From an uncultured Ktedonobacteraceae bacterium (GTDB taxonomy: Bacteria; Chloroflexota; Ktedonobacteria; Ktedonobacterales; Ktedonobacteraceae), in assembly GCA_964250365.1 (NCBI GenBank), contig CAXUGH010000006.1, positions 2,157-49,899 on the forward strand: a DNA stretch of 47,743 bases. Reading direction: 5' to 3'. Below the pieces are notes generated by a model, which was not told the DNA's origin, ran no database searches, and saw only the letters and a program-made list of their open reading frames with translations. The position numbers and the translations under genes are program-made. This document shows positions 2,606-39,387 of the stretch, in pieces. Each line of letters begins with the position of its first letter. Positions within the stretch are counted from its first letter, which is position 1.

Positions 2606-4165
2606 ATGAAGTTCCGCCTGATTGTAAGCTTTGTAGGGGCTATAGTAGTAGTGATTGGTGCTACTCTAGCAGTATTCTTACTTAGACCAAATATTTTTTC
2701 ATCAAGACAGCCACAAACCTCTAGCATAATTGCACTTGAAAACGCTCATCAGGGAACAACTGATTGGCAAATTGCAGCAAAAAACGGTGCAACAATAGAA
2801 ATACAGGCATATGCTAACCAAACATCTGTGGCAAATGGGCAAAAGCTTACTTTCTATGTCAGCACTATACGAGAGCATACGATTTTTTCAGTTAAGATTT
2901 ATCGCTTAGGATGGTACGGAGGAGCTGGGGGACGACTCTTTGCAACTCAGGAAAACTTGATTGGTCATGCACAAGGATACTACAATTCCAATCTTCACCG
3001 TTTAATAAACTGTAAGTCTTGTCACGTTGACACCACTACAGGGCTTGTTGAAGCGAATTGGCAGCCCTCTTATACGCTTACCATTCCCTCTACCTGGGTC
3101 ACAGGAGTCTACTTAGCAAAATTTACTGATGCTCAGGGCAAACAGACCTACACGCCGTTTGATGTACAAGGCAACGCTCAAGCAACATATTTCGTTGTCA
3201 CTTCAAACACCACGTATCAAGCATACAACCAATGGGGCGGGTACAGTCTCTATAAATCATTTGACAACCATTTAGACAAAGCAGCAAAGGTATCGTTTGA
3301 CCGACCATATGATCGTGCGAATGGTGCAGGTGATTTACTCCTCTTTGAAATCGACGCTATCCGGTGGTTAGAACATCAAGGCTATGATCTTTCTTATGGA
3401 AGTAGTGTTGATGTGCATTCAGACCCAGCGCAACTACTCAATCACCACGCTTATCTCTCGCTCGGTCATGATGAATATTGGACGAAAGAGATGCGCGACG
3501 GTGTAGAGCGAGCGCGTGATAGCGGTGTAGGGCTTGCGTTTGTAGGTGCGAATGCGGCATATTGGCAGATGCGCTTCGAGCCTGATAGTGCAGGGATAGA
3601 AAATCGTACAGAGGTTTGCTACAAAGTGCAAACTTCTCTTAAAGACCTATCACGAGATCCGCTTTTTGGACAAGACAATAGCCGTGTAACGGCGCTATGG
3701 CGTGATCCTGTACTCGCACGTCCAGAGAATGCATTAATTGGTATTATGTGGTCTAATTATACACAGAATCCTCTCGGATTTCCCTGGCGGTTTGCGCCGG
3801 AAGCTGAGTCATCGTTGTTGGATGGTACAGGTCTGCAAGCAGGTCAAAAGTATGGCTGTGAACTCGTCGGCTATGAATGGGACCGTGTGTATGATAATGG
3901 AGCTACACCTGCCGGGTTACATATACTTGCGCGATCCGATACTGTGAATTTTCGCAATGAACGCGACTTCAGTAACACCACCTACTATATAGCTTCTTCG
4001 GGGTCAATGGTCTTTGCAACAGGTTCGATTTACTGGGCGGCAGGTTTGGACAGCTATCGTTACTCGCCTGAAAAAGTCTGCAATGGTCAAGTTGCGGTTA
4101 TTCCTGGTATGCAAAAGCTCATGATAAACGTTATGAAGACATTAGCAGTATCTCACGTCTCTTGA
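2606..4165 (+). CDS. Membrane-anchored N,N-dimethylformamidase beta-subunit-like (DUF6605-type) domain protein
   Basis: N-terminal TM helix. YQAYNQWGGYSLY and LGHDEYWTKEMRD motifs, which I associate from memory with this family. RBS GGAAGG lies 6 nt upstream. Paralog of 6556..8151. Confidence 0.65.
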   Translation: MKFRLIVSFVGAIVVVIGATLAVFLLRPNIFSSRQPQTSSIIALENAHQGTTDWQIAAKNGATIEIQAYANQTSVANGQKLTFYVSTIREHTIFSVKIYRLGWYGGAGGRLFATQENLIGHAQGYYNSNLHRLINCKSCHVDTTTGLVEANWQPSYTLTIPSTWVTGVYLAKFTDAQGKQTYTPFDVQGNAQATYFVVTSNTTYQAYNQWGGYSLYKSFDNHLDKAAKVSFDRPYDRANGAGDLLLFEIDAIRWLEHQGYDLSYGSSVDVHSDPAQLLNHHAYLSLGHDEYWTKEMRDGVERARDSGVGLAFVGANAAYWQMRFEPDSAGIENRTEVCYKVQTSLKDLSRDPLFGQDNSRVTALWRDPVLARPENALIGIMWSNYTQNPLGFPWRFAPEAESSLLDGTGLQAGQKYGCELVGYEWDRVYDNGATPAGLHILARSDTVNFRNERDFSNTTYYIASSGSMVFATGSIYWAAGLDSYRYSPEKVCNGQVAVIPGMQKLMINVMKTLAVSHVS

Positions 4166-6555: not shown

Positions 6556-8151
6556 TCAATGCTGGTTCACTACTAAAGCATCCATAACATGCTCCATCAA
6601 CTTCTGCATGCCCGGAACTACATGTTTTTGACCGGAACACGATGGGTCCGTGTAGAGTCGATATTCATCGAGGGCTGTAGTCCAGAAAATGGAACCGGTA
6701 GCAAAGACCATTGCCCCTGATGAAGCGATGTAGTACGTTGTATTGCTCACGTCTGATTTATTCGTAAGATCAACAGTATGTGATACACTAAGCACCTGTA
6801 ATCCTGGAGGCGTAGCTCCATTGTTATAGATGCGGTCCCATTCGTAGCCTACTACTCCACACCCATACATTTGCCCCTGTTGAAGTCCGGTTCCTTCTAA
6901 AAGAGAGGAGTTTGCTTCAGGATTGACACGCCACGGATATCCTCTCACGCGATGAACGTCAGAAGAGAACATAATACCGGCTAGAGCGTTTTCTGGGCGA
7001 GCGAGCAGAGGATCACGCCATAGAGTGGTTACGCGGCTATTATCCTTACCATAAAGCGGATCATTCGAGAGATCCTTGTGAGAGGTCTCTACTTTATAAC
7101 AAACTATCGTTCGATTTGGAGTACCAGCACTATCCGGTTCAAAGCGCATTTGCCAGTACACTTCGTTTCCTTCAAAAAATGCTAAGCCCACGCCGTGATT
7201 CCGCGCAGACTCTACACCATCACGCATTTCTTTCGTCCAGTATTCATCGTGACCAAGCGAAAGATAGGCGCGGTAATGTAGTATTTGTGCAGGATTTGCA
7301 TGGAGATCGACATCGCTCATGTAGGATACACTGTACCCCTCTCTTTCCATCCAGTGAATAGCTGGAGCTTCCATAACAAGAACTTGGGCTGAACCATATC
7401 CATCAGCTTCAGTGTAGGGTCGATTAAACGATACTTTGACGCCGCGTCCTATGCTCCCGATGCCAGCAGGGTTATATGCCATGTAGAGACTGTACTCACC
7501 CCAATCATTGTAGGCTTGGTAGGTCGTGTCGGCTGTCACAGCAATGTAAGAAGTTGTTGGCCCTTTCACATCAAACGGCACATATGTTTGCAAATTATTT
7601 GCATCAATAAATTTTGCTAGATAGACTCCTGTCATCCAATTGGAAGGAATCGTCAGAGTATAGGATGGATGCCAGTGTGCATCAACAAGCCCTGTTGAGA
7701 CATCTACAGTACATGAAGTACAATCAATGAGTTGATGGCTGTTAGGATTGTAGTATCCTTGCTGATGACCTATCTGGCTTTTGATGGAAGTCATCAAGCG
7801 TCCCCCAGTACCGCCATACCATCCCAGGCGGTAGATTTCAATAGAATACACGGCGTTATTTGTTTGGGTACTTGCATAAAAGGTCAGCCTTTGCCCAGGG
7901 AATATAGAAGTTGCACTGGCATACGCCTGAATTTGCACAGTAGCTTCATCACGTCCCGGAATCCTCCACCTCGTTGTACCATGCTGTGTATTCTCAAGAA
8001 TGATAGCTTTACTTCGAGTAATTTCTGTATTTCCTAGCTTGAGTGAAGACATTTGTTTAACAGACGCATGCGATTTATACATCATAAAAGTAAATAGCGA
8101 GGCACCTATTGCCAAAGCTATCAGTATAAGCACTACAATCTTGCGTCTCAT
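6556..8151 (-). CDS. Membrane-anchored N,N-dimethylformamidase beta-subunit-like domain protein (paralog of 2606..4165)
   Basis: Same architecture and motifs (YQAYNDWGEYSLY, LGHDEYWTKEMRDGVE). Colinear with the 2606 ORF over the full length. ATGA start/stop overlap with the upstream GT gene. Confidence 0.65.
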   Translation of the reverse strand: MRRKIVVLILIALAIGASLFTFMMYKSHASVKQMSSLKLGNTEITRSKAIILENTQHGTTRWRIPGRDEATVQIQAYASATSIFPGQRLTFYASTQTNNAVYSIEIYRLGWYGGTGGRLMTSIKSQIGHQQGYYNPNSHQLIDCTSCTVDVSTGLVDAHWHPSYTLTIPSNWMTGVYLAKFIDANNLQTYVPFDVKGPTTSYIAVTADTTYQAYNDWGEYSLYMAYNPAGIGSIGRGVKVSFNRPYTEADGYGSAQVLVMEAPAIHWMEREGYSVSYMSDVDLHANPAQILHYRAYLSLGHDEYWTKEMRDGVESARNHGVGLAFFEGNEVYWQMRFEPDSAGTPNRTIVCYKVETSHKDLSNDPLYGKDNSRVTTLWRDPLLARPENALAGIMFSSDVHRVRGYPWRVNPEANSSLLEGTGLQQGQMYGCGVVGYEWDRIYNNGATPPGLQVLSVSHTVDLTNKSDVSNTTYYIASSGAMVFATGSIFWTTALDEYRLYTDPSCSGQKHVVPGMQKLMEHVMDALVVNQH

Positions 8152-14618: not shown

Positions 14619-15722
14619 TTATCCCTCAGCTTTTCTATCTGCTGATTGTAGCAGCGCAATTTGAGAAGCAACAGAAGGAGTATGTAAACTCCTGGACGAC
14701 ATCTGCTTTCGTCTCTTAAGAATGCTCAAGAAAATACCACGAATTCCTGTACGCTGAAACTTGTGGTAAGCACGAGCCAAACGATTTTCGATATGATAGA
14801 GAGGAGAGTACTTATACTTTGCCCAACGTGCAGCTAGATTTGCACAATGATCACAGCCAGAATACTGAGCGAGTGCTGTGAGCAATGTAATATGCAGTGC
14901 ATGGTAGAAACGAGATGCTCTTTGCTTATAAAGCAGATCGTAGCGCGACCAGTTTCCAGTGTCGTACTGCTCGATGAGTTTATGAAAAGTTGCGAGGCTT
15001 CGTCGAATAAGTGAGTCTATTTGCGCGTCTCCAGCGACTGCGACATAATCATAGAGACCAAAGAGCGAGAGAATATATCCATTAAGTACATGTGAAGGTG
15101 GATATACAGCAAACTCTTCAAAAAATACTCCTTCCTCACCAACTGTGGTGCTAACGCCTCCATCCTTGATATCTAACTCAAAAGTAAGCACGCCACGACG
15201 AGCTGCTTGAAGAAAAACTTCATCATCCGTTAACTGATTTGCCCGTACCAATACCGAAATGACATTTCCTTGCGTTAAGGCAGAACACCAGGGGGTAGAG
15301 GCATTATAGTCAATCACAGAAAAAGGAATCGACCAGCGTCCCATCTGTTGCTCTTCATGTTCCAGAAGCCAGTGAGCTTGCGTCATGAATGCATGACTAA
15401 ACTTTTCATCTCCTGTTCTGAGATACGCATTCCAATTAGCGAGAGCGTATTGTGCAATTGTAGTAGGATGATACGCAGCAGGATATAGTCCAGTAGGCGC
15501 GTTATAAGGTACCCCCGATTCATCAAGTGTGCCATGTGGTAACGTTAGTAAAGCTTCAAAGTCCATTGGATAGGGTAAGAAACGGGAGGCATCATGCAAT
15601 ATAGACACCAAACGGTAACAAGGTTTTGCCTGCTCTTTACGCCAAAGTTGCCACTCAGCAATGAAGAAGCTAATAATAGGCAGAGTACTCCACCTGCTGT
15701 ATAAACTCATTTTCTTTCTCAC
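14619..15722 (-). CDS. D-glucuronyl C5-epimerase C-terminal-domain-like protein
   Basis: SALTQGNVISVLVRAN, FFEEFAVYPPSHVLNGYILSLFGLYDY, YDTGNWSRYDL and RWAKYKY match, from memory, the GLCE C-terminal domain (QGxAISxLVRAY, WYEEYP..VLNG..SLxGLYD, LYDTG..xYDL, RWxxY). Confidence 0.8.
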   Translation of the reverse strand: MRKKMSLYSRWSTLPIISFFIAEWQLWRKEQAKPCYRLVSILHDASRFLPYPMDFEALLTLPHGTLDESGVPYNAPTGLYPAAYHPTTIAQYALANWNAYLRTGDEKFSHAFMTQAHWLLEHEEQQMGRWSIPFSVIDYNASTPWCSALTQGNVISVLVRANQLTDDEVFLQAARRGVLTFELDIKDGGVSTTVGEEGVFFEEFAVYPPSHVLNGYILSLFGLYDYVAVAGDAQIDSLIRRSLATFHKLIEQYDTGNWSRYDLLYKQRASRFYHALHITLLTALAQYSGCDHCANLAARWAKYKYSPLYHIENRLARAYHKFQRTGIRGIFLSILKRRKQMSSRSLHTPSVASQIALLQSADRKAEG

Positions 15723-17936
15723 TTACTCCTGACTAGTCTGTTCCGCAGTTCCAATCGCTCTGGTCAAGACTCGCTTGAACACAGTAGCATTATGTTGTTG
15801 CTCAACATAATGCCTCGCTGCACGTCCCATATTGAGGCAAAGCTCCGCATCATTGATAAGGCGAGTCAGAGCATTGCTCGTTTGCTCTACATTCTCGGCA
15901 GGAACAGCAATTCCACGTCCCTCTGCAAGTAGCTTTTCATTTGATAGAGGTCGTGTTGAGGCGATAACAGCACAAGCAGATGCCATTGCCTCTAGTACCG
16001 CCATAGAAAGGCATGCGCCCCGTATGCTTGTGTAGAGGAAAATGTCGGCAATACCGAGAAGTGAGACGACATCACTTGGCGAAGTTTCTCCCCACAACGT
16101 GTAAGTATGGTCCAACTGGCGTGTATGAATATCTTCTTCTATCTGAGGACGCAGAGGTCCATCGCCTGCAATGATAACTTTCACTCTCCTACGTACCTCT
16201 TGCGAAAGTTCGGAAAGTGTTTGGCTTATTCCATTAAGGGCGATATGAATACCTTTCTCGGCAGCAAGCCTACAAGTCATAGCAATGACAATGGAATCTG
16301 CAGGAATATTGAGTTTAGCGCGTAGAAGTCTCTTTTGGTTTCCATCAAGATCAAGATAGCGGTGAGCATCAATCATACTGCCGAAGCGGGTAAAACGGCT
16401 TGAAGAGATGCCAAGACGCTTGCAAATCTCCTCTGTCCCATCGCCAGCAACTCCTGGTATTAAGTAATGATCCACAAAGCGAGCAGAGATACGCGCTAAC
16501 AGGGAGAGTGAAGGCCAATACCCGATGTAGCACAACCGTCCCCAAAGTTGACGGGGAAATGACCAATTTTTTGTCGCGAGTGCCGCTATACGCTCAGCAC
16601 GATACGACGGGTTTTTGAGCAAAGTTAGATTGCCGTGATCAATACAAACGACGCGCACTCCTGCTAGTTTCGCCACCAGTACGGAGAAAGCTGAGGTAAA
16701 GACGCCATCCTGTGGCAGAATAACCTGATATCTTTTTCCTTGATGCAAAAGTGAGGTAAGCTTCCATAAACCCGTTAAAAAGTAAAGCCACACTGCTGGA
16801 AATTGCCAAGGTCCAGTTTTTGCTGTACCGAATTTGTAGATAGTAAGATCATCTGGGTTGGGTCCAACATGTTGCGTTAAATATTCTATTTGCCATTCAG
16901 CTTTTGTTACTTGAGCAACACTCGCTAAGACTGCTCGTGTACCGCCAGTGACTGGGAAGGCATGAATAGGTACGCATACACGAAGGACTGACGCTTCTTG
17001 CGACTCAGGAAATAGTGTCGTTTGTATCCGCTTCCATAGGAGTCGAGCATGTGAGTTGTACCACTGAATACCTTTATACAATATCCTAGAGCGTCGACTA
17101 TGCTGATAGTGTTTCCAGCGAAGTGCTACTCTTGTACAATGTTCACATCCTGTACCGATTGCAAGTGCTTCAAGCAATTCCGTCTGTGCTACAAGTTGAG
17201 AAGGAGTACTCAAGTGCCGATGGAGCAGATCATAACGGGTCCAAAAACCGTTATCGAACTCATCAATAACTGCATGAAGTGTTAAGCAGCCTTTTTCAAT
17301 ACACTCCTGCACATAAACACTATCAATGATCTGTGCATAATCATAAAGCCCCTGAAGCGCGAAGAGGCTTCCTAGTAATGAATGACTTGCTGGATAAGCT
17401 GCCATCTCTTCAAAGAAGGTACCATGCTCTCCTATAGGAGTGCTTATACCTCCATCAAGAATATCTCGTTCAAAAGTGCGTACCGTTCTGTGTGCTAACG
17501 CTAAAAATGTAGCATCACCGGTACATTGATATGCTCTGACAACTACAGAAAGTACACATCCTTGCGTGGTAGCAGATAATCTGGAATTACCTTCTCTTAT
17601 CTTTTGCTGTAGAAGTACGCATAGCCATGAGCTTGCATTCTCGCCCAGAGAAACTTCGTTTTCGATGAACCATTGTGCTTGTGCTAGAAATTCGTGGCGA
17701 TGGTATGGCTCCTCAGTTATGAGGTATTGATTCCAATGAGCTAAAGCATGTAGCGCAATGAATGTTGGATCATGTTGCGATGAGGCATCATTGTAAAAAA
17801 ATCCTTTCGTATCAATGCTATCACTTTCGATAGCAAGACATAATGACAGGTTTACAGGATAACAGGACTCACGAGGAAATTTTTCGGGAGATATAGTTTG
17901 CGTATTTTTGTCGTCTTTGTTCATTTCTTTATACAT
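15723..17936 (-). CDS. Fusion protein: glucuronyl C5-epimerase-like N-domain plus GT4 glycosyltransferase C-domain
   Basis: The N-terminal half is paralogous to 14619..15722 (ATTQGCVLSVVVRAY, FFEEMAAYPASHSLLGSLFALQGLYDY, FDNGFWTRYDL, RWKHYQH). The C-terminal half has GT-B features (SMAVLEAMASACAVIAS). Confidence 0.8.
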   Translation of the reverse strand: MYKEMNKDDKNTQTISPEKFPRESCYPVNLSLCLAIESDSIDTKGFFYNDASSQHDPTFIALHALAHWNQYLITEEPYHRHEFLAQAQWFIENEVSLGENASSWLCVLLQQKIREGNSRLSATTQGCVLSVVVRAYQCTGDATFLALAHRTVRTFERDILDGGISTPIGEHGTFFEEMAAYPASHSLLGSLFALQGLYDYAQIIDSVYVQECIEKGCLTLHAVIDEFDNGFWTRYDLLHRHLSTPSQLVAQTELLEALAIGTGCEHCTRVALRWKHYQHSRRSRILYKGIQWYNSHARLLWKRIQTTLFPESQEASVLRVCVPIHAFPVTGGTRAVLASVAQVTKAEWQIEYLTQHVGPNPDDLTIYKFGTAKTGPWQFPAVWLYFLTGLWKLTSLLHQGKRYQVILPQDGVFTSAFSVLVAKLAGVRVVCIDHGNLTLLKNPSYRAERIAALATKNWSFPRQLWGRLCYIGYWPSLSLLARISARFVDHYLIPGVAGDGTEEICKRLGISSSRFTRFGSMIDAHRYLDLDGNQKRLLRAKLNIPADSIVIAMTCRLAAEKGIHIALNGISQTLSELSQEVRRRVKVIIAGDGPLRPQIEEDIHTRQLDHTYTLWGETSPSDVVSLLGIADIFLYTSIRGACLSMAVLEAMASACAVIASTRPLSNEKLLAEGRGIAVPAENVEQTSNALTRLINDAELCLNMGRAARHYVEQQHNATVFKRVLTRAIGTAEQTSQE

Positions 17937-32010: not shown

Positions 32011-32877
32011 CTAATGGACTTGCCGCTCTTTGATAGAGCGAATGTAGCGATTTAACTTACGAATAGTTTCCTCTACATTCGGTTGGATAAAATCGAACTC
32101 TGGTAGGTTAGGCAAATGATCCAGAGGAAGGGAACGAATGGTAACGCTCACGTTGCGCCCATTCGCATCGAGGCAAAAACTTCTTGTACGATACATATGT
32201 TCCACATCATCAATCTCTACAATTTCATTCTCATCTACTTTTTGCAAGGCACCAACACTATCATAAAAGTATGTGCTGATACTTTGACCGCTATCTCTAT
32301 GGTTTACCGTATTGATTGTTAACCGTATCATAATGATGCGATGTTCGAGTGGCAAGACATAGGTATAAATGTTGACGCTGTAACGCATCATACCATCCTT
32401 GCCCAGTTTCCAGAGGATATCTTGCTTGAGATGTTGCTTGGCATCTTTCGCTCCTGGAACAGCGTATCCTCGTACAACCAGAAGACGTTCACGCTCCCTA
32501 GGAGTAAGGTCTTCCAAATCTTCTTCCTGCAACGCCTTCTCTAATCCATTCTTCGCCTTTCTATCGATCCAAATATCGTATTGGAGGTCGCTTGGAGTCT
32601 GCATCCCAAAGCGTACCATAAGCCATAGAGTACTGCCAACGATAAAACAGCACAATGCGGCGAGTAAAAACCATTTCATATTTCCTAGCCAGATGAAACC
32701 TAGTACGACGCTAGCGAAGCACAAAACAAAAGCAATACGTAGTGCATAAATTTTGCTCGTATCGTCTTTTGTAAAGTAGGCTCGCATCTGATCGTCAGTA
32801 AATTCGCGATATACTGCACTAGAAACTTTGGAAATCACAAAGGGAATTGATCCCTGAACACTTCGTCGAAATTGCAT
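32011..32877 (-). CDS. Hypothetical 2-TM membrane protein with a ~200-aa cytoplasmic alpha/beta C-domain
   Basis: TM hairpin IYALRIAFVLCFASVVLGFIWLG / WFLLAALCCFIVGSTLWLMVRFG. Start at ATG 32877 (AAGGAG 7 nt upstream). No family recognised. Confidence 0.65.
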   Translation of the reverse strand: MQFRRSVQGSIPFVISKVSSAVYREFTDDQMRAYFTKDDTSKIYALRIAFVLCFASVVLGFIWLGNMKWFLLAALCCFIVGSTLWLMVRFGMQTPSDLQYDIWIDRKAKNGLEKALQEEDLEDLTPRERERLLVVRGYAVPGAKDAKQHLKQDILWKLGKDGMMRYSVNIYTYVLPLEHRIIMIRLTINTVNHRDSGQSISTYFYDSVGALQKVDENEIVEIDDVEHMYRTRSFCLDANGRNVSVTIRSLPLDHLPNLPEFDFIQPNVEETIRKLNRYIRSIKERQVH

Positions 32878-32905
32878 AAGAAAACTCCTTCCATTGGTTG
32901 CGAAA

Positions 32906-33766
32906 CTAATTCCACCAACCTTGTGCATCCTGCATCAAGCGCGGTTGACAAGAATAGAGAATGTCTATGTACTCCTGGTCTTGTGATGTGAAAGAGATAG
33001 AACGCAACTGTTCTATGAGTTCGTCAGCATCGTCATAAAGGTGTGAATGCCCATTCCAACCGTAGTCCTGTTTGATGACAGCGAGTACGTAAAGGTAAGC
33101 CCAGGAAACGTGCAATGTATTAGCAGACTGCAATAGTTGGGTAGTTCGACAAAATGTTTGATAGTTTGCATGACGAGGGCGTTTGCCTCGAAAAAGTGCT
33201 AATGCCAGCAATGCACGTACCTGTGCAGACGCTGCAAGATGTTGTTTCTCTGTCAACAAATGAAGGGACTTTTCAAGGTGAGAAATTGCTAGGTCGTATT
33301 CACCTCTTTGGAGGGCATCCCGTCCATCTTGCAGCCCTTGCATCCCCACTGTTACTTTATCTTCCTGCACATGTGTAGTATTGACGATGGTGCCGAGGTT
33401 GACACCATTGACAGAACCATAAGCATTTCCATGATGTTGAACGCTAACAAGGCTACTTGCACCTGTATTAGTCTGTTGTAGGTCTGTTAGCAATCGTTGT
33501 GCCATTTCGTAGGCAGTTGTGTCTTGAGCAAGTCCAGCCTTACTGAGAGTGTCGCGTAAAGGCTTTTCCCATGTATCCTGGTCTTGTTGATATTCGTCCA
33601 GCACAAGCAACGATTTGCGTGCATCAGCTTTGCTTGTCAAAACCTTACGAATATGTTTCACCAACGCCTCCAACTCGTCTTTTATTGTATCGCTGATAGC
33701 ACCTTGACTACCTGTTGCCAAAGCACCACCGATTGCCGTGAGGATGAGATTGATGACATCTGTCAA
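32906..33766 (-). CDS. Hypothetical protein: Gly-rich N-terminal helix, TPR-like C-terminal half
   Basis: TTG start at 33766 with AGGAG 7 nt upstream. N-terminus LILTAIGGALATGSQGAIS. TPR-like GRDALQRGEYDLAISHLEKSLHLL...ALLALALF. Confidence 0.6.
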   Translation of the reverse strand: MTDVINLILTAIGGALATGSQGAISDTIKDELEALVKHIRKVLTSKADARKSLLVLDEYQQDQDTWEKPLRDTLSKAGLAQDTTAYEMAQRLLTDLQQTNTGASSLVSVQHHGNAYGSVNGVNLGTIVNTTHVQEDKVTVGMQGLQDGRDALQRGEYDLAISHLEKSLHLLTEKQHLAASAQVRALLALALFRGKRPRHANYQTFCRTTQLLQSANTLHVSWAYLYVLAVIKQDYGWNGHSHLYDDADELIEQLRSISFTSQDQEYIDILYSCQPRLMQDAQGWWN

Positions 33767-33827
33767 AATTTTTCTCCTTTAGTGAAGCCAATGAACAAGA
33801 TGGTAAAAAAAAGAGTACTGCCAAACG

Positions 33828-34367
33828 CTAGGCAATACGAATATATTCGTACTCAACGCCCCCACTACTAGCACTCTGCTCCCGACGTAGGATATAACCT
33901 TCACTCCAAAGCTGTTTGAGTTTGTTACTTGCATTAGGAACTCTCAGACCAAGGACACTAGCAGCCTCACTTGTATATGCAACTGGAACCAAGAGGACAT
34001 AATATAACATGTCTCGTAGTCCAGCACTTGGTTCTGGCCCTATAATAGAGTACTTCCCATTTGACTCACAAACAGTGATAGGTTGCTCCTGTCTGCGAGC
34101 TGCTGCATCCCAGTTCTCTAGCAAATCGGGGTCTTCGATATGACTAATACAAAATCCTTTCTTTCCACGGTAGCTTTTGGCTAGCTCAATAACAGATGTT
34201 CGTGGAAATGTGATATCTGTCTGCTCAATGCCATCTAACGAGATGGAAAGAATTTGTTCGTTAGGATGATCCTCTATCAACGCTTGGAGTTTATCACGAA
34301 CTTGACGGCCTAAAGTGTGCCCCCAACCGTCGGAGCGTCCCATTATGTCTCGCAAGCGTATCTGCAT
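33828..34367 (-). CDS. STAS-like (DUF4325-type) domain protein with a C-terminal winged-helix
   Basis: GHTLGRQVRDKLQALIEDHPNEQILSISLDGIEQTDITFPRTSVIELAKSY fits the DUF4325/STAS-like pattern (from memory). C-terminus SEAASVLGLRVPNASNKLKQLWSEGYILRRE is wHTH-like. ATG 34367 has AAGGAG 7 nt upstream. Confidence 0.55.
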   Translation of the reverse strand: MQIRLRDIMGRSDGWGHTLGRQVRDKLQALIEDHPNEQILSISLDGIEQTDITFPRTSVIELAKSYRGKKGFCISHIEDPDLLENWDAAARRQEQPITVCESNGKYSIIGPEPSAGLRDMLYYVLLVPVAYTSEAASVLGLRVPNASNKLKQLWSEGYILRREQSASSGGVEYEYIRIA

Positions 34368-34401
34368 CTCTATCTCCTTCACTAAATCTAGTGTAGCAGA
34401 T

Positions 34402-35319
34402 TTAGCGAGAAGTGTCAAGAGGAAATGAGAAACAGATATGCGTTCCTGCTAAGGGAACCAAATGTTCTTGGTAAGACGCACGAAGGGAACGATTATCTGA
34501 AGAAGTAAGGTGTACGCTACATGTTTCAAGCCGAATGGTAACGCTTCCAGTAAGCTTTAAGGCTTTCCTGCCACACTCTTCTAATCCTTGCCCTGCACCT
34601 CCATGTTGCCATGAAAGCGTTCCCTGAAAAAGTTGACGTAGCGTCTCGGTATCATTTAGCGATGTTGAACTAAGAAGCTTAGGGCGTAGCGTTGTGAGTA
34701 AACCCACCCCGCTATCTGATACGACTACGAGTACTCGCCCTCCTTGCTGATAGACTTGTAGCGCGGCAGAGCCATTCAATACAGTCTGGCTATGTCCATA
34801 GATATTATTGACGAGTTCGGCAAAAGTTGTATAAGCTGTATGACCGAAGTGTTCTGCGTCAGGACGTTTTCCCATAGCTATTTCGAGTGCTTGTGCAAGC
34901 TGTTTAGGGATATCGTCATCTTGCTGATTGTGTAGGGGATGGATGCTTCTAAACTCGACTAGACCTCGGTTTTGTCCTTGATAGCGTTTTACTTCCGACC
35001 CGTCTGGACGATGTGGGTGAACTCGAACTTGCTCGGCAAGTAGAGAGAAAAAATTAGCACGATTCAGGTAATTCATCGCCTTGTGCGATTGTCCTTCAAA
35101 GAGCAAGGTCACTTGCTGCCCTCTCGCCACACTTTGATTTGCAAATGAAAGGAGCCGTACTGCAGCATCAACCATAATTTTGCATGAAGGTGGAAAGCGA
35201 AAAAGAAAACTCTCTGAATTTTCCAGAGATGTTGGGTTTGTCTTATATGTCTGTCTGAATGCTTGTTCAAATTCGTTTCCTGTCGCCCATCCATTGGAAA
35301 GTAACACAACACGTTCCAT
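34402..35319 (-). CDS. GHKL-superfamily ATPase (RsbW/SpoIIAB-like HATPase_c) with an unknown N-terminal domain
   Basis: N-box ELVNNIYGHS, G1 VVVSDSGVGL, G2 GGAGQGLEE. ATG 35319 has GGAGGA 6 nt upstream, overlapping the upstream stop. Confidence 0.65.
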   Translation of the reverse strand: MERVVLLSNGWATGNEFEQAFRQTYKTNPTSLENSESFLFRFPPSCKIMVDAAVRLLSFANQSVARGQQVTLLFEGQSHKAMNYLNRANFFSLLAEQVRVHPHRPDGSEVKRYQGQNRGLVEFRSIHPLHNQQDDDIPKQLAQALEIAMGKRPDAEHFGHTAYTTFAELVNNIYGHSQTVLNGSAALQVYQQGGRVLVVVSDSGVGLLTTLRPKLLSSTSLNDTETLRQLFQGTLSWQHGGAGQGLEECGRKALKLTGSVTIRLETCSVHLTSSDNRSLRASYQEHLVPLAGTHICFSFPLDTSR

Positions 35320-35329
35320 AACGATCCTC

Positions 35330-35884
35330 CTAGATAGCATGTCCTCGATACATCTGCCACCATCGGTACAGATAATGGCTCTTGTCTGGCATATATTTAG
35401 CTCTCCTTTGCATATTGCTCAATCCGTCGCTAATAGCATCAAATGACGAGTTAGAAATATCAGCCCAATATTTGAAGAGATCGAGAGTAGTCATAATGTG
35501 AAGTTGCGACAGGTGTTGCTGAAAGAGCAAAATAGCGTCTTGGTCATCAATTACAAGTGTCCAGTTCCGATTGGATGCTATAGACGCTGCAAATGCTTCA
35601 CTATTCCCCAACTTTCCATTACTCACATAGGCTAAATTGATGACGGTTTCTTGCTCACGTTCACTTTCGACATCTACAAAAGAGAATAGTTTTTTATCAA
35701 GCGGTATTTGCAAATCAGTCAATGTAATATTGCCATTGTTGGTACGCACTTCTTTGTCGCGCACAATTGCTTTTTGTCCTGGCAGAACTTTCAGCACCGG
35801 TTCCATCACATTAGAAGCATGCAAGTTGACGATAGACCAAGCATCTATGATCGTATGGTCTCGCAAACGTGGGATATCACTCAT
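35330..35884 (-). CDS. PIN-like domain protein (tentative)
   Basis: TIIDAWSIVNL (first acidic strand) and LGNSEAFAASIASNRNWTLVIDDQDA...IMTTLDLF resemble the GEAEAIALA...LLIDD..AR...GTLGIL layout of COG2405/DUF3368-type PIN domains. The ATG overlaps the upstream stop (ATGAGTGA), with AGGAGGA 8 nt upstream. Confidence 0.45.
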   Translation of the reverse strand: MSDIPRLRDHTIIDAWSIVNLHASNVMEPVLKVLPGQKAIVRDKEVRTNNGNITLTDLQIPLDKKLFSFVDVESEREQETVINLAYVSNGKLGNSEAFAASIASNRNWTLVIDDQDAILLFQQHLSQLHIMTTLDLFKYWADISNSSFDAISDGLSNMQRRAKYMPDKSHYLYRWWQMYRGHAI

Positions 35885-37115
35885 GCCCTAAATCCTCCTG
35901 ACTATTGGGAGGTTCCTGTGGCTCCTGTGGGATTTGTTTTATCACGACATCAGTTTGAGCCGTGGTAGTACCATCTTGCTGAAATAGCTCAAGCATCTTT
36001 CTGGCCTCCCACCGATCAACCTCAAGAAACTGCGAGAATTGTGCCTCGCTAATCAAACCACTTTCTAATGCTTCAAGAGCAAGATACTGATAGCGAAGGG
36101 GATATTTTTGTTCTTGCACCACGATAGGAGCAAGTCCTAACTGTTCCTGTGCCTCACGTACTTTGAAGCCACTTGCTTTCAACTTCTCTGCGAAGCCTGT
36201 TGGTAGTAATCTCAAATCCTCTAGGCGTAGCAGCATTGCTTCAACTGAGACTCCATAGTAGTGAGCAAGGATTAGTAGGTCTCCCAACTTGACGCTCTCT
36301 TTCATTTTCCGAATGTCATTAAAGCGTTTGACAACACTGTTTGTTGGCATGAGAAAGAATGTCGCAAAGTCATCGGCAAGGCGTTCGCTTTCTGGCTTAC
36401 GCTGATAGGTATCATCACTGAAGACCGTTGGCTTCTGGCGATACGTCAGGAAATGCCCGTAGTCATGGGCTAGGGACCAACGACGCCGCTCTTCTGGATG
36501 ATTGCTATTAACGGCAATGCACCCTCCTACCTGTTCATCATACAAATAGATGGCAGAAAACTTCTTAGGCAATGGGTAATAAAAGACTCGTAAACCTACA
36601 TCCTGTTCCAGAATATCACGTAGTAATGGAATTTGTCCATTGTTCAATCCCAAACGAGTACGCTCCTCTATCGCAATATTTTCGGCTGCCTCACTTGTCG
36701 AGAGATTTCCCATTTCGTATACAGTAGGATAGCGACGGTTGAGCGGCGATTGCGTGATATGTTCGAGTTCATAATAATTGCGTGCTAAAAATTTAAGTTG
36801 CTCAACTGATGGCTCCACTAACTTGTTATCTTCTTCTGTTCGTAGCGAGGGGCCGCGAAACTGCGGTTGAGAGAGTGCGATATCAGGATGTGGACGCACT
36901 AAGTCTGTGATAGGCATATCGTATGCTTGTGCAAGTTTGATAAGTTCGCCCGCTTTGATACGACGCTCTCCCTTCTCTATAGAGGTCATCGTGGTACGAG
37001 CAACATCAATAAGCTTGGCGGCCTGTTCTTGCGTAAAGCCTTTTCTGATACGTGCCTGTTGCAGTTCACGCCCAAGCGTTTTCATGTCTATGGTATTCAG
37101 CACGCTGTAGTCCAT
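35877..37115 (-). CDS. Fused XRE-family HTH / ImmA-IrrE (COG2856) metallopeptidase-like protein
   Basis: N-terminus LGRELQQARIRKGFTQEQAAKLIDVARTTMTSIEKGERR (XRE HTH). Central WSLAHDYGHFL sits at the position of the HExxH motif. C-terminus LAHYYGVSVEAMLLRLEDL is typical of COG2856. Confidence 0.85.
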   Translation of the reverse strand: MDYSVLNTIDMKTLGRELQQARIRKGFTQEQAAKLIDVARTTMTSIEKGERRIKAGELIKLAQAYDMPITDLVRPHPDIALSQPQFRGPSLRTEEDNKLVEPSVEQLKFLARNYYELEHITQSPLNRRYPTVYEMGNLSTSEAAENIAIEERTRLGLNNGQIPLLRDILEQDVGLRVFYYPLPKKFSAIYLYDEQVGGCIAVNSNHPEERRRWSLAHDYGHFLTYRQKPTVFSDDTYQRKPESERLADDFATFFLMPTNSVVKRFNDIRKMKESVKLGDLLILAHYYGVSVEAMLLRLEDLRLLPTGFAEKLKASGFKVREAQEQLGLAPIVVQEQKYPLRYQYLALEALESGLISEAQFSQFLEVDRWEARKMLELFQQDGTTTAQTDVVIKQIPQEPQEPPNSQEDLGHE

Positions 37116-37178: not shown

Positions 37179-38585
37179 TTACTCAAGAAACGCTCGTCCT
37201 AGTGGCTCCCTTACTTGTTCCCATTCATTGACATACTCTCGGTAGAGTTGTAGAAGCCGCGTTTGTAGAACCGTCTGTGATACTTCCTGTTCTCTTTGCA
37301 CACCCATATTTTCTACGATATCTGATAACGTGAGATAGTGTTGTGACATACGTTGCCAACTATCGGAAGTAGCCAGCAGCGTTTTCATTGTATTCACCTG
37401 TGCTAGCATTGCACGATAATAGAGTGCATCCTTCGGATTACGTTTCCTCTTGGAATTATCAGTAATTTGATAAGATGTTTTATCAGGTACTCCAGAAACA
37501 ACAATAGCCTGACGCCTTAGAAGGCACGAAGAGCAGTAACCACATTGCTGTAGGTAAGCTCGATGTCTGCTATCACAACTTACTGTAAAGGACGCTAGTT
37601 TTGTAAAACCTTGCGTCAATAGTTCTTTACACATCTGCGCCTTTGTCCAAGAGAGAAAAGGGTTTCGGAAAAGGAATGGTTGTCCGAGAATAGTTGACAA
37701 CAAATCGCTCATGTATACTAAAGATAACGGATGAACCGACCGTGAATGATCGAGTGCCACTTCCGATTTGCGAAACGGAAGATTAATAGCACCGACACCA
37801 TTCTCATGGATATGGAGCGTGTTCTTCTCTATATGATGAGCGCATACAGCTCCCAGTAATAGAAATACGAAGCCTCGTGAACGCATACTAGAACTGGTGC
37901 GAATGTCGTCGTTCACGCCCCTTAGAGCAAAGGGAAGTTGTAAAAGCTGTATACGTCCAGGAAACAATCCAACTAACATTTCTGAGGTCTCTCGTTGCGT
38001 TGCATTCATATAGTTATTGCTACCAGTACCGAAGAGAATGTAGTTACTCGCATTATCCTGACACAGTTGTTGATAGGCACCTGCGAAAGCATCCAGACCT
38101 CCACTCCACAGAGCCACTCGTGTCGCCTCGTTTGTTTGTGATAAAAAAGGCAAAGGATGTTGTCTCTGTGCAGTACGTGGGTGCTTCGTATATGGGAGAA
38201 ATTCAAACGTCCAAAAGTCTCCAGTAAACCAATATAAGACCTCCCTTAACTTCTCAGGAATAGATGTGTCATTTAATTTTCGATATGTCTGCAATGGAAG
38301 ACGAATCCGAATACGGCGAGGCATCTCTTTTTCTGTCCGTACCATTTTTGAGTAGTTTGTAGCGAGACGATCCACGAGATGAACAGCGATAGCGATATCG
38401 ACCAAATCCGAATGCTGAGGTGCGAGAGCTTGATAATTTAATAATGGTATCTGGCTGTCGTCTACCATGATTTGTACATCGATCACTCGATTAGCTCGAT
38501 AGTCAAATATCCTCAAACCACTCTCTTTATATTGTTCGCCAATATGCTCAAAGGTAAAATCGTAATCATATTCTTCTAGCATCAT
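37179..38585 (-). CDS. QueC-like PP-loop ATPase with N- and C-terminal extensions
   Basis: VALWSGGLDAFAG (PP-loop, cf. SGGxDS), RSRGFVFLLLGAVCAH, NPFLSWTKAQMCKEL and SCDS...CGYCSSCLLRR (Zn-Cys cluster) occur in QueC order. It is 468 aa versus about 230 aa for QueC. AGGAGGA RBS overlaps the upstream stop. Confidence 0.8.
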   Translation of the reverse strand: MMLEEYDYDFTFEHIGEQYKESGLRIFDYRANRVIDVQIMVDDSQIPLLNYQALAPQHSDLVDIAIAVHLVDRLATNYSKMVRTEKEMPRRIRIRLPLQTYRKLNDTSIPEKLREVLYWFTGDFWTFEFLPYTKHPRTAQRQHPLPFLSQTNEATRVALWSGGLDAFAGAYQQLCQDNASNYILFGTGSNNYMNATQRETSEMLVGLFPGRIQLLQLPFALRGVNDDIRTSSSMRSRGFVFLLLGAVCAHHIEKNTLHIHENGVGAINLPFRKSEVALDHSRSVHPLSLVYMSDLLSTILGQPFLFRNPFLSWTKAQMCKELLTQGFTKLASFTVSCDSRHRAYLQQCGYCSSCLLRRQAIVVSGVPDKTSYQITDNSKRKRNPKDALYYRAMLAQVNTMKTLLATSDSWQRMSQHYLTLSDIVENMGVQREQEVSQTVLQTRLLQLYREYVNEWEQVREPLGRAFLE

Positions 38586-38593
38586 AGTTCCTC

Positions 38594-39223
38594 CTATGCA
38601 CCCAGCGTTGGAATGTCCGAATCAATGGTGTAGTCCATCTTTACACGCTTTCTTCTTGGCTGTCGCGGAAGATACACTGTCTCTTTTTTGTAAATGGCCT
38701 TGACGTACTCTTGTATGCGTGCTTTGACAAATGGACGCATCATTTCTAGCTGTTCGCCAACAAATGCATCACTCGCACCGTTATAGTGAGTAGGAGTGAG
38801 AGGCACACATTCTACGAATTTAGCTTCACATATATTCGTCATATATCCCGTGAGTAGTTCTATAAAACAGTTCGTAGGCTGAACACCATTACGAATCGCC
38901 CAAAATTCTTCCTTACAAGCTCTCGCGGCTAACTCTCGTAACGGCTTATTAGCATACACTCTTGTCTTTGTATCTATGAGAGCTTCTTCTTGCTGCCAAT
39001 CGATCTTCTCAAAAAATTTTCTATCCAGAATGCTTTGTAGTTGTGTTGCGACCTCTTTCAGCATATGTATCAGCGTATCTTTGCCCCGTTTCATATCTTT
39101 CCACACATCCTCTGTTACCTTGTTAGCAAGCTCCTCGCCAGTCAATTTACCTTCACACAACTGCTTGTATGATGTATGGTATCGTCGTTCAAGATGTTCA
39201 TGTACTATGTCGCCGTCTGGCAT
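38594..39223 (-). CDS. Hypothetical helical protein, translationally coupled to the QueC-like gene
   Basis: 209 aa from ATG 39223 (AGGA 7 nt upstream). Charged, predicted helical, with a basic C-terminal patch RQPRRKRVK. No family recognised. Confidence 0.65.
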   Translation of the reverse strand: MPDGDIVHEHLERRYHTSYKQLCEGKLTGEELANKVTEDVWKDMKRGKDTLIHMLKEVATQLQSILDRKFFEKIDWQQEEALIDTKTRVYANKPLRELAARACKEEFWAIRNGVQPTNCFIELLTGYMTNICEAKFVECVPLTPTHYNGASDAFVGEQLEMMRPFVKARIQEYVKAIYKKETVYLPRQPRRKRVKMDYTIDSDIPTLGA

Positions 39224-39303
39224 ACGCATTTCCTTTTTTTCACTACCTAAAAAGAAAGAACATAAAAACAAGACACACTACAAACACAATGGCTTTAGCA
39301 AAG

Positions 39304-39332
39304 AGTATATGTCAGATAAAGAAAAATGTCAA
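39304..39332 (-). promoter_or_regulatory. Candidate sigma70-type promoter of the 8-gene island
   Basis: Minus strand: TTGACA (39332-39327), 17-nt spacer, TATACT (39309-39304), about 80 nt upstream of ATG 39223. Confidence 0.4.
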
Positions 39333-39364: not shown

Positions 39365-39387
39365 AAATTTATATGACATATAAATTT
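39365..39387. promoter_or_regulatory. 23-bp perfect palindrome (operator candidate)
   Basis: AAATTTATATG-A-CATATAAATTT has 11-bp arms around one central base. It lies in the divergent region between the island and the MFS gene and overlaps a second TTGACA hexamer. Confidence 0.35.

Follow-up and report, generated by a model that had tools for sequence, protein, structure and literature searches.

The two neighbouring minus-strand genes analysed here, which encode a small partner protein and a QatC-like enzyme, are the first half of a widely conserved four-gene cassette of bacterial immunity type, in which the order is partner, QatC-like enzyme, a HTH plus M78 peptidase protein (RosmerTA RmrA-like) and a PIN-like protein, the presumed nuclease. 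They lie in a window of 47,743 nt (contig CAXUGH010000006.1 of assembly GCA_964250365.1, positions 2,157 to 49,899) from an uncultured Ktedonobacteraceae bacterium. By analogy with related systems, the enzyme probably tags the extreme N-terminus of its partner, and the two genes are joined to a toxin-antitoxin-like pair in nearly every genome that has this enzyme clade, a combination which we could not find described. We consider the cassette to be most likely a Qat-like defence system that differs from QatABCD both in the partner and in the genes that follow the enzyme, although its chemistry and the coupling between its two halves are inferred.

The partner and the QatC-like enzyme

What the first-pass annotation had observed, a 209-aa gene 8 nt upstream of a 468-aa QueC-like gene with no queuosine or TGT genes nearby, was confirmed. 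The open reading frame of the partner extends back to a TTG at 39271, but AGGA is located 7-8 nt before the ATG at 39223 and 19 of 19 homologues align from MPDGD. The partner's TAG stop codon lies inside TAGGAGG, the ribosome-binding site of the enzyme gene. Pfam scans of every open reading frame of 120 aa or more in the window found no queD, queE, queF, folE, tgt, KAP NTPase (QatA), TatD (QatD) or CD-NTase gene, and no dpdA gene is present nearby. The interpretation that had been attached to this observation is only partly supported. A QueC homologue outside queuosine synthesis, of the QatC type, and a small-unknown-then-QatC gene order that mirrors qatB-qatC are both supported, and the reported link to protein modification is real: Cap9 conjugates 7-amido-7-deazaguanine to the CD-NTase N-terminus (bioRxiv 10.1101/2025.04.06.647259), and QatC is proposed to do the same to Gly2 of QatB (PMC13279940, PMC13376578, PMC13639016). 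In contrast, the suggested nucleic-acid substrate has no support, the unit comprises four genes and not two, and the description of a double-length enzyme with N- and C-terminal extensions (~155 and ~100 aa) of no recognisable family is wrong, as this is simply the architecture of QatC.

The extensions align with QatC in three comparisons, namely with the PADLOC QatC profile (residues 57-387, E=1.9e-44), with the NCBIfam QatC profile NF041925 (residues 57-401, E=3.8e-49), and in a Foldseek search with an AlphaFold2 model of the enzyme (pLDDT 85), whose top hits were the QatC chains 9y01_B and 9y02_B (E=4e-17, TM 0.60-0.65 over 421 columns; 9y01 is a QatB-QatC complex). QueC and Cap9 structures align over only about 205-225 columns (206 for Cap9, 9nto_B). 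Among PDB sequences, the QatC chains 9zee_B (E=1.2e-23) and 9vlk_A (E=5.7e-18) were found. However, the NCBIfam score of 167.7 bits is below the equivalog cut-off of 280, the enzyme is only about 22-30% identical to QatC, and its clade is separate from canonical QatC in a neighbour-joining tree; it is a family relative and not an equivalog.

The motifs WSGGLDA, RSRGFVF, NPFLSWTK and C337...C348-G-x-C351-x-x-C354-LLRR are present, and most are invariant in 22 homologues. In the PP-loop (S161-G-G-L-D165-A166) S, G, G and D are invariant in 20 of 20 clade members, while the last position, Ser in SGGxDS, is Ala in 11 (including the enzyme studied here) and Ser in 9. The zinc ligands C337, C348, C351 and C354 as well as R357 and R358 are invariant or nearly so, with a spacer of 10 residues between C337 and C348 compared to about 19 in E. 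coli QatC (PMC13329287). The motifs that Libby et al. (PMC13329287) defined for the QatC cluster, DxW/YxxxF, RxRxxxF/Y, ExG, HP, P(x)4TK and CGxCxxC..RR, are also present and conserved (GDFWTFEF, RSRGFVF, ENG, HP and PFLSWTK for the first five). At the two positions that read the nucleobase in QueC and Cap9 (Tyr/Asp), canonical Qat enzymes have Thr/Thr, the enzyme of the window has S281 and S283, its clade has [S/T/A] and [S/A], and the divergent plasmid clade described below has Tyr and Asn.

The partner is 31% charged and is predicted by AlphaFold2 to be a seven-helix protein (pLDDT 79, pTM 0.77) with disordered residues 1-12 and 181-209, and its family comprises 399 clusters at 50% identity. 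It is not a QatB homologue by profile or by predicted fold, only an analogue: the PADLOC and NCBIfam QatB models gave no hit, hhalign against eight QatB sequences gave a probability of 2.5%, a partner profile searched against PDB sequences gave only chance hits, and a Foldseek search of the PDB found nothing at E<=0.001, although the library contains 9y01, which was hit by the enzyme model. Homology to CD-NTases was not detectable either. Like QatB the partner has a near-invariant extreme N-terminus, but a different one. MPDGD is invariant in the 19 aligned sequences, M-[PAST]-D-G-D is found in most of 80 loci, and M-[PA]-D-x-D is found across 144 cluster representatives, whereas QatB begins with MGTS. 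We considered the Asp-Gly pair as an aspartimide hot-spot, but this idea is weakened because Gly4 is not invariant in the wider family, where R, A, S and V also occur.

Conservation and genomic context of the cassette

The same four genes in the same order were found in five metagenome or genome contexts with unrelated flanks, and in 72 (about 97%) of the 74 loci whose contig reaches past all four positions, out of 80 loci from species genomes of Chloroflexota and Cyanobacteria. In one more of these 74 loci, L009, the HTH-M78 gene is split into several open reading frames, and one locus, L012, has only the first two genes. Median spacings are 5, 18 and 17 nt, and no locus was seen in which this enzyme clade carries a different downstream pair. 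A far more divergent version, with only 23-25% enzyme identity, lies on five alphaproteobacterial plasmids, often beside known defence genes. Its partner begins with MSDG, MTDG or a GTG-initiated (M)RDG, and hhalign between the two partner families gave a probability of 6.4%, with only the N-terminal M-x-D-G and the basic C-terminal tail being shared. No close relative of the window clade was found in PLSDB, where all hits are below 31% identity, and a scan of viral contigs found no relative. Genes encoding SNF2 with MmeI-type enzymes, CARF, DUF3800, AbiE, an Eco57I methylase and Shedu lie near the cassettes, as is typical of defence islands. The four genes that follow in the window (32011-35340) have no convincing family.

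Features of the cassette and of its upstream region (window coordinates)
Position	Strand	Feature	Elements within the feature	Presumed role
39365-39387		23-bp perfect palindrome AAATTTATATG-t-CATATAAATTT, upstream of the -35 box		Likely operator for the cassette's own HTH protein (inferred)
39304-39332	-	Sigma-70-like promoter, TTGACA-17 nt-TATACT (11 of 12 matches)	TGACATATA half-site overlapping the -10 box	
39273-39281	-	Conserved leader motif GTA[AG]TG[CT]GT, here GTAGTGTGT, 58 nt before the start codon		
38594-39223	-	Partner gene (209 aa)	MPDGD 39209-39223; predicted seven-helix bundle; predicted disordered basic C-terminal tail ending in an I-D-x-D-like motif	Protein substrate of the QatC-like enzyme
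37179-38585	-	QatC-family PP-loop ATP pyrophosphatase (468 aa)	PP-loop SGGLDA 38088-38105; zinc-binding Cys4 cluster 37524-37577	
35877-37115	-	HTH (XRE) plus Peptidase_M78 (ImmA/IrrE, COG2856) protein (412 aa)	HTH 36900-37076; M78 36222-36605; UPF0175-like region 35991-36089	Repressor, sensor and antitoxin
35330-35884	-	PIN-like protein (184 aa), start overlapping the stop of the HTH-M78 gene by 8 nt		Nuclease effector or toxin

The HTH-M78 and PIN-like proteins and the promoter region

The third gene, which is present in all complete loci, matches Pfam Peptidase_M78 (E=3.7e-19), HTH_3 (E=2.9e-12) and, weakly, UPF0175 (E=7e-4), as well as the PADLOC profiles RmrA (E=1.3e-23), capP (E=3e-19) and capH (E=1.8e-6), and all 41 family members match as proteins with fused HTH and M78 domains. 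H216, H220 and E243 are conserved, but the glutamate position of the HExxH motif is Gly in 16, Asp in 14 and Glu in 11 of 41 sequences, and is Asp in the window. A CapP/ImmA-type proteolytic switch can therefore not be general. The protein carries an extra, conserved C-terminal region of about 110 aa in which a UPF0175-like signal recurs weakly (7 of 41 members, best E=4e-6), UPF0175 being a PIN-associated antitoxin family (PMC2701414, PMC5499597).

The assignment of the fourth gene product as PIN-like rests on sequence evidence and is transitive, as the direct Pfam hit of the window's own protein is not significant. The family alignment contains D13, E95 and the signature A-T-D-D (D112), Pfam PIN matches 2 of 46 members, and VapC4 (1v96) aligns in register. 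In addition, the gene-4 HMM hits the fourth gene product of homologue L095 (9e-11), which passes the Pfam PIN gathering score (27.5 against 23.6) and is called a PIN domain protein by PGAP. Fusions of Xre and COG2856 with PIN toxins are a known predicted three-component toxin-antitoxin type (PMC2701414, PMC5499597, PMC10440598).

TGTCA...TGACA palindromes are found at the same relative place as the palindrome of the window in the related loci L001, L003, L005, L008 and L010, and the string CTGACATATACT at the -10 box is conserved in L001, L003 and L005. The leader motif is carried by eight Chloroflexota-lineage loci 45-64 nt upstream of the start codon, against 0.15 expected by chance, while no Rfam family matches the operon or the leader.

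Proposed mode of action and alternative explanations

Our analysis shows that the enzyme is a complete QatC-family PP-loop ATPase with the QatC-specific N- and C-terminal domains and intact ATP and zinc sites, that the four genes are kept tightly spaced and in the same order in nearly every genome with this enzyme clade, and that the partner family has a near-invariant extreme N-terminus. What follows from this is inferred, including defence, complex formation, modification and toxicity, and we hold it with moderate confidence. In this view, by analogy with Cap9-CdnD and QatC-QatB, the initiator methionine is removed, because residue 2 is almost always Pro or Ala (occasionally Ser or Thr), the short flexible N-terminal tail enters the active site of the enzyme, and the enzyme adenylates a carboxylate substrate, probably a 7-carboxy-7-deazaguanine-like molecule, and transfers it to the N-terminal amine of the partner. 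More weakly inferred is that the HTH-M78 protein represses the operon through the palindromes at the promoter and, through its UPF0175-like region, holds the PIN nuclease inactive as in Xre-COG2856-PIN / RosmerTA modules, and that the state of the partner (modified or not, free or bound) switches this brake during infection, which would release the nuclease and abort the infection. However, the acceptor would be Pro or Ala rather than Gly, the tail of the partner has about 12 residues compared to 30-90 in QatB, and the chemistry of QatC itself is unsettled, as it has not been reconstituted in vitro and an NDG-modified peptide was seen only at low level (PMC13279940, PMC13639016). As the nucleobase-reading positions are Ser/Ser, as they are Thr/Thr in QatC, the transferred group may not be a deazaguanine.

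An alternative explanation, which we consider unlikely, is that two independent modules travel together, a minimal QatBC-like defence pair and an ordinary Xre-COG2856-PIN toxin-antitoxin or addiction module that only stabilises or regulates the island, with no functional link between partner modification and the nuclease. Indeed, QatB and QatC alone protect against lambda-vir (PMC13279940), Xre-COG2856-PIN modules are common on their own (PMC2701414, PMC5499597), and L012 keeps only the first pair. The strictly identical order with spacings of about 5-20 nt in about 97% of loci, its recurrence on plasmids with a highly divergent enzyme, and the lack of any locus with a different downstream pair argue against this explanation.

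Equally unlikely in our view is that the HTH-M78 protein is purely a CapH/CapP-like or ImmR/ImmA-like transcriptional switch, in which the peptidase cleaves the HTH upon DNA damage or infection and induces the operon, the PIN protein is the sole effector, and the QatC-like pair only licenses it. The capP and capH matches, the conserved palindromes that overlap a strong promoter, and the precedent of ImmA/ImmR (PMC2701414, PMC10440598) are consistent with such a switch, but proteolysis by the standard mechanism cannot be the conserved function given the variable HExxH glutamate, and the extra C-terminal region also speaks against it.

A more speculative and rather doubtful possibility is that the cassette uses a new form of QueC-type protein chemistry and a new way of reading it. 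The acidic N-terminus might be modified on a Pro or Ala alpha-amine with a group other than 7-amido-7-deazaguanine, or the Asp3 carboxylate of the partner might itself be the substrate that is adenylated, as in asparagine-synthetase or beta-lactam-synthetase chemistry. The M78 domain, whose catalytic glutamate has decayed in many members, might then act as a non-proteolytic reader of the modified peptide tip, and binding would release the PIN nuclease from the UPF0175-like antitoxin region.

A decayed canonical QatABCD system that has lost qatA and qatD would agree with the QatC profile matches and the gene order, but is refuted by the comparative data: neither gene is found in the window or in five fully annotated relatives, the HTH-M78 and PIN-like genes follow the enzyme in 72 of 74 complete loci, the enzyme clade is separate, and the partner is not QatB. 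A housekeeping or paralogous QueC making preQ0 for tRNA queuosine or dpd-type DNA modification is very improbable despite a Pfam QueC score of 25 bits on the C-terminal zinc region and many database records naming homologues 7-cyano-7-deazaguanine synthase, because the TIGR00364 QueC score is 11.2 bits against a cut-off of 150.3, the substrate-reading Tyr and Asp are replaced by Ser/Ser, the QatC cluster is reported to lack the other QueC motifs and E. coli QatC does not complement a queC mutant (PMC13329287), and no que, folE, tgt or dpdA genes are nearby.

Significance and relation to known systems

N-terminal deazaguanylation of proteins was discovered only in 2025-2026 and is known for two substrate types, CD-NTase and QatB, which both use Gly2. 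The cassette would add a third, unrelated substrate family with a different and equally conserved N-terminus (Pro/Ala-Asp-x-Asp), and a repressor/peptidase-like protein plus a PIN nuclease as a different downstream module. Only about one third of the QatC-cluster proteins are reported to be located next to qatA and qatD (PMC13329287), and this cassette accounts for at least part of the rest. Literature searches, including one for QueC together with Rosmer, returned nothing relevant, and the three QatBC structure papers and the QueC-family survey do not mention an M78- or PIN-coupled variant. The cassette is common in Cyanobacteria and Chloroflexota, lineages not represented among the experimentally studied systems cited here. 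With four small genes, a sharply defined candidate acceptor site and a plausible toxic output, it could be an easier system than QatABCD for asking what QatC-type enzymes attach and how the tag is read.

The closest known system is QatABCD with its QatB-QatC core. The enzyme has the whole QatC architecture, that is an N-terminal alpha/beta domain, PP-loop core, Cys4 zinc site and helical C-terminal extension, a small protein predicted to be all-helical with a conserved extreme N-terminus is encoded immediately upstream and is translationally coupled, and a (presumed) nuclease gene belongs to the operon. In contrast to QatABCD, an HTH-M78 protein and a PIN-like protein take the place of the KAP NTPase and the TatD nuclease, the partner is not homologous to QatB and is shorter (209 against about 260-295 aa), and the positions equivalent to T278 and T280 are Ser/Ser. 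In type IV CBASS, a QueC-family enzyme acts on the N-terminus of a neighbouring immune protein, CdnD, as is proposed for the cassette, and a second protein of the operon could read the modified tip here, as Cap10 does. However, Cap9 is a minimal QueC of about 185 aa that keeps the QueC active-site residues, and neither a CD-NTase with an MGGS N-terminus nor a TGT-like Cap10 is found in the window or in relatives; the cassette also has no cyclic-nucleotide effector. With RosmerTA / Xre-COG2856 (ImmA/IrrE)-PIN three-component modules the cassette shares an HTH plus M78 fusion that matches RmrA profiles, a PIN-like gene that starts at the end of the fusion gene, and neighbours typical of defence islands. 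It differs from them in the preceding partner and QatC-like pair, in the non-conserved catalytic Glu of the peptidase motif and in the UPF0175-like C-terminal region, and the Rosmer toxins described so far are mostly other folds.

The predicted enzyme and its partner

Both open reading frames described by the first-pass annotation, a QueC-like gene and a smaller gene of unrecognised family directly upstream of it, exist on the minus strand with the extents given there, and this observation is thus confirmed. The interpretation was only partly supported, because the QueC-like protein belongs to the QatC family along nearly its whole length rather than being a QueC with unknown appendages, and because the unit comprises four genes and not two. 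Although the partner ORF is open upstream to a TTG at 39271, AGGA is located 7-8 nt before the ATG at 39223, and all homologues align from this Met. The gap between the two genes is 8 nt, and the TAG of the partner gene lies inside TAGGAGG, the ribosome-binding site of the enzyme gene. The motifs noted for the enzyme are present and mostly invariant in 22 homologues, and the partner is indeed highly charged (31% of residues) and is predicted to be a seven-helix protein. Pfam scans of all ORFs of 120 aa or more in the window revealed no que, folE, tgt, KAP NTPase, TatD or CD-NTase gene. An exopolysaccharide cluster was found at 0.1-31.8 kb, and an MFS transporter, a transglutaminase-like protein, an anti-sigma factor and an S58 peptidase are encoded to the right of the cassette. 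The exopolysaccharide biosynthesis cluster includes Wzz/ParA-like tyrosine-kinase, CpsB, Wzy, flippase and several GT4 genes as well as UDP-GlcNAc 2-epimerase, UDP-sugar dehydrogenase and DegT, together with two glucuronyl C5-epimerase-like genes and two paralogous DMFA2_C (dimethylformamidase-beta-like) genes, the latter being an unusual companion for such a cluster.

Coordinates of the cassette, its predicted regulatory elements, neighbouring genes and two deviating loci (positions in the window unless a locus is named)
Feature	Position	Strand	Size or sequence
Partner gene (ATG at 39223, TAG at 38594-38596)	38594-39223	minus	209 aa
QatC-like enzyme gene	37179-38585	minus	468 aa
HTH-M78 gene (gene 3)	35877-37115
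Altered HExxH motif of gene 3, residues 216-221	36453-36470		HDYGHF
PIN-like gene (gene 4)	35330-35884
Sigma-70-like promoter	39332-39304		TTGACA-17-TATACT
Leader motif	39273-39281	minus	GTA[AG]TG[CT]GT, 9 nt
Four genes following the PIN-like gene	32011-35340	minus	312, 196, 286 and 305 aa
Exopolysaccharide biosynthesis cluster	104-31805	minus
Two glucuronyl C5-epimerase-like genes	14619-17936
Two DMFA2_C genes	2606-4165, 6556-8151
Two-gene form in a Chloroflexia genome	L012 6185-8221
Split QatC-like gene in an Armatimonadota genome	L071 5623-8113

The PADLOC QatC profile matches residues 57-387 of the enzyme (E=1.9e-44), the NCBIfam QatC profile matches residues 57-401 (E=3.8e-49), and the crystallised QatC chains 9zee_B and 9vlk_A match with E=1.2e-23 and 5.7e-18, respectively. 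An AlphaFold2 model of the enzyme (pLDDT 85, pTM 0.89) retrieved the QatC chain of the QatB-QatC complex (9y01_B, 9y02_B) as top hit in a Foldseek search (E=4e-17, TM 0.60-0.65 over 421 columns), while B. subtilis QueC and Cap9 align only over about 205-225 columns of the core. In addition, the motifs listed for the QatC cluster by Libby et al. (PMC13329287), i.e. DxWxxxF, SGGxD, RxRxxxF, ExG, HP, P(x)4TK and the CGxCxxC..RR zinc site, are all present. The protein is nevertheless not an equivalog of canonical QatC. It scores 167.7 bits against the NCBI cut-off of 280, it is 22-30% identical to QatC proteins from qatABCD operons, and it falls in a separate cluster in a neighbour-joining tree. 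The two invariant threonines of QatC, which replace the nucleobase-reading Tyr/Asp of QueC and Cap9 (PMC13279940), are Ser/Ser in this protein. The canonical QueC model scores only 11 bits against a cut-off of 150.

The partner family is sizeable, with 399 clusters at 50% identity, but it has no Pfam, PADLOC or NCBIfam model. Homology to QatB was considered and rejected: a profile search of PDB sequences was negative, hhalign against eight QatB proteins from plasmid-encoded qatABCD operons gave a probability of 2.5%, and the AlphaFold2 model of the partner (pLDDT 79) has no significant Foldseek hit in a PDB library that demonstrably contains the QatB-QatC complex. What the partner shares with QatB and with type IV CBASS CD-NTases is a near-invariant extreme N-terminus followed by a flexible segment. 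MPDGD is invariant in 19 of 19 close and middle-distance relatives, M-[P/A/T/S]-D-G-D occurs in most of the 80 genome loci analyzed, and among 144 representatives of the wider family we found MPDGD 71 times, MADGD, MPDRD and MPDAD 11 times each, and smaller numbers with S, V, Y, D or K at position 4. The constant features are therefore Met1, a small residue 2 (Pro or Ala), Asp3 and Asp5, in contrast to canonical QatB, which starts with MGTS. A small residue 2 allows removal of the initiator Met, an established rule (cited in PMC13279940), and the mature protein would then begin with Pro or Ala. Residues 1-12 and 181-209 are predicted to be disordered. The C-terminal tail is basic and ends in a conserved I/L-D-x-D/N motif in both the clade of the window and the plasmid clade described below.

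A conserved four-gene cassette

Five relatives of the enzyme (84% down to 42% identity) are located on contigs with unrelated flanks, and all five show the same four genes in the same order, encoding a protein of about 210-220 aa, the QatC-like enzyme, an HTH plus Peptidase_M78 protein of about 405 aa, and a protein of about 185-195 aa. A scan of one genome per species returned 122 relatives, of which 80 were kept, and profile HMMs of the four proteins were run over these loci. The complete cassette is found wherever the contig is long enough, with two exceptions. In locus L009 the M78 gene is split into several ORFs, and locus L012, from a Chloroflexia genome, has only the partner and an apparently intact QatC-like gene followed by an unrelated convergent gene, which is either a remnant or a natural two-gene minimal form. 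In locus L071, from an Armatimonadota (Chthonomonadaceae) genome, the QatC-like gene is split into two pieces about 900 nt apart, suggesting an insertion or an assembly break inside the gene. The hosts are mostly Cyanobacteria and Chloroflexota (the window itself looks Ktedonobacteria-like), and a few are Armatimonadota, Planctomycetota and Entotheonellaceae. Median spacings between the genes are 5, 18 and 17 nt.

The same architecture occurs on alphaproteobacterial plasmids (Methylocystis, Labrenzia, Pannonibacter, Sinorhizobium, Roseomonas), although the enzyme is only 23-25% identical to that of the window. In this very divergent version (loci L091, L092, L093, L095 and L096) the PP-loop is changed to S-[D/N/E]-G-x-D-S in place of SGGxDS, Tyr/Asn are found at the positions that are Thr/Thr in QatC, and the partner starts with MSDGPH, MTDGPF or, from a GTG start codon, (M)RDGIW, but shows no profile similarity to the partner of the window beyond the termini. 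Neighbours of the cassette are often defence genes, including SNF2 with MmeI-type enzymes, a CARF protein and DUF3800, AbiE, an Eco57I-type methylase and Shedu. No relative was found in a scan of viral contigs.

Gene 3 encodes an XRE HTH (Pfam E=2.9e-12) fused to an ImmA/IrrE (M78, COG2856) domain (E=3.7e-19), and its best PADLOC matches are RmrA, the antitoxin of RosmerTA, and CapP. It is the best conserved of the four proteins, with 64% mean column identity. The zinc ligands H216, H220 and E243 are conserved, but the glutamate of HExxH is Gly in 16, Asp in 14 (including the window) and Glu in 11 of 41 cassette homologues. Standard metalloprotease catalysis therefore cannot be the conserved function, and the peptidase domain may have become a non-catalytic binding module in much of the family. 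The C-terminal region of about 110 residues gives a weak but recurring signal for UPF0175 (E=7e-4 in the window, 7.6e-5 in a plasmid homologue, and 7 of 41 members with a best value of 4e-6). UPF0175 (COG2886) is a predicted antitoxin found with PIN toxins (PMC2701414, PMC5499597).

Gene 4 overlaps the end of gene 3 by 8 nt. Its family shows the PIN pattern D13 ... E95 ... A-T-D-D112, two of 46 members hit Pfam PIN, and VapC4 (1v96) aligns in register. The Sinorhizobium homologue, which is linked to the family by the gene-4 HMM (9e-11), passes the Pfam PIN gathering score and is annotated as a PIN protein by PGAP. Xre-COG2856 fusions followed by PIN genes were predicted long ago to be three-component toxin-antitoxin systems (PMC2701414, PMC5499597), and ImmA-type antitoxins paired with PIN-like toxins also appear in the NetFlax network around RosmerTA (PMC10440598).

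Four further co-oriented genes follow the PIN-like gene, the first of which overlaps its end by 11 nt. The first product shows a weak match to HATPase_c (E=7e-4) and the fourth is a membrane protein with a weak match to DUF2207_C, but none has a PADLOC or NCBIfam family. Gene products of similar lengths (305, 179, 285 and 290 aa) occupy the same position in the 84%-identical relative L001, but not in L003 or more distant loci. These genes could represent a separate, unknown defence-type module or a lineage-specific extension of the cassette.

Predicted regulatory elements

A strong sigma-70-like promoter (11 of 12 matches) was identified upstream of the partner gene. A 23-bp perfect palindrome is located just upstream of the -35 box, and a related half-site overlaps the -10 box. 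Relatives with otherwise diverged intergenic DNA keep TGTCA...TGACA palindromes and the CTGACATATACT -10 region at the same places, which fits autorepression by the HTH protein, although this is an inference from sequence alone. In addition, the leader motif is conserved 45-64 nt upstream of the start codon of the partner gene in eight Chloroflexota-lineage loci (the window, L001, L003, L006, L007, L008, L010 and L045) whose leaders are otherwise diverged, while only 0.15 occurrences are expected by chance. It has no Rfam match and could be a second operator or a leader RNA element.

Possible mechanism and relation to known systems

The analysis itself demonstrates a complete QatC-type ATP pyrophosphatase by sequence and predicted structure, a cognate upstream protein with a near-invariant and probably flexible N-terminus, and, apart from the exceptions L009 and L012, a linkage of both to an HTH-M78 and PIN-like pair. 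The next steps, complex formation and catalysis, are inferred from the solved Cap9-CdnD and QatB-QatC complexes, in which the N-terminal tail of the partner lies in the active site; the chemistry was shown for Cap9 and detected at low level for QatB (bioRxiv 10.1101/2025.04.06.647259; PMC13279940; PMC13376578; PMC13639016). By analogy, the enzyme would bind its partner, take the demethionylated N-terminus into the PP-loop pocket, and couple an ATP-activated carboxylate, most simply 7-carboxy-7-deazaguanine, to the N-terminal amine. The conserved loop 270-280 of the enzyme corresponds to the QatC loop that packs on QatB, and it is the lowest-confidence segment of the monomer model, as expected for an interface. 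The link to the output is more speculative. In this reading the HTH-M78 protein would be both repressor and brake on the PIN nuclease, and the state of the partner would relieve the brake on infection. We consider the overall picture somewhat more likely than not and N-terminal modification of the partner about as likely as not, whereas the proposed link to release of the PIN nuclease remains doubtful.

PADLOC v2 contains no model for the partner or for gene 4, and, in a literature search restricted to open-access papers, the three QatBC structure papers and the QueC-family survey do not mention this arrangement. Libby et al. note that only about 34% of QatC-cluster genes are located next to qatA and qatD, and list nothing else for that cluster. 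The enzyme is a member of the QatC protein family in the broad sense, but the cassette does not belong to the QatABCD system, as neither QatA, QatB nor QatD could be identified. In the view proposed here, the cassette would work like QatBC and Cap9-CdnD at the front end, and like Xre-COG2856-PIN / RosmerTA at the back end.
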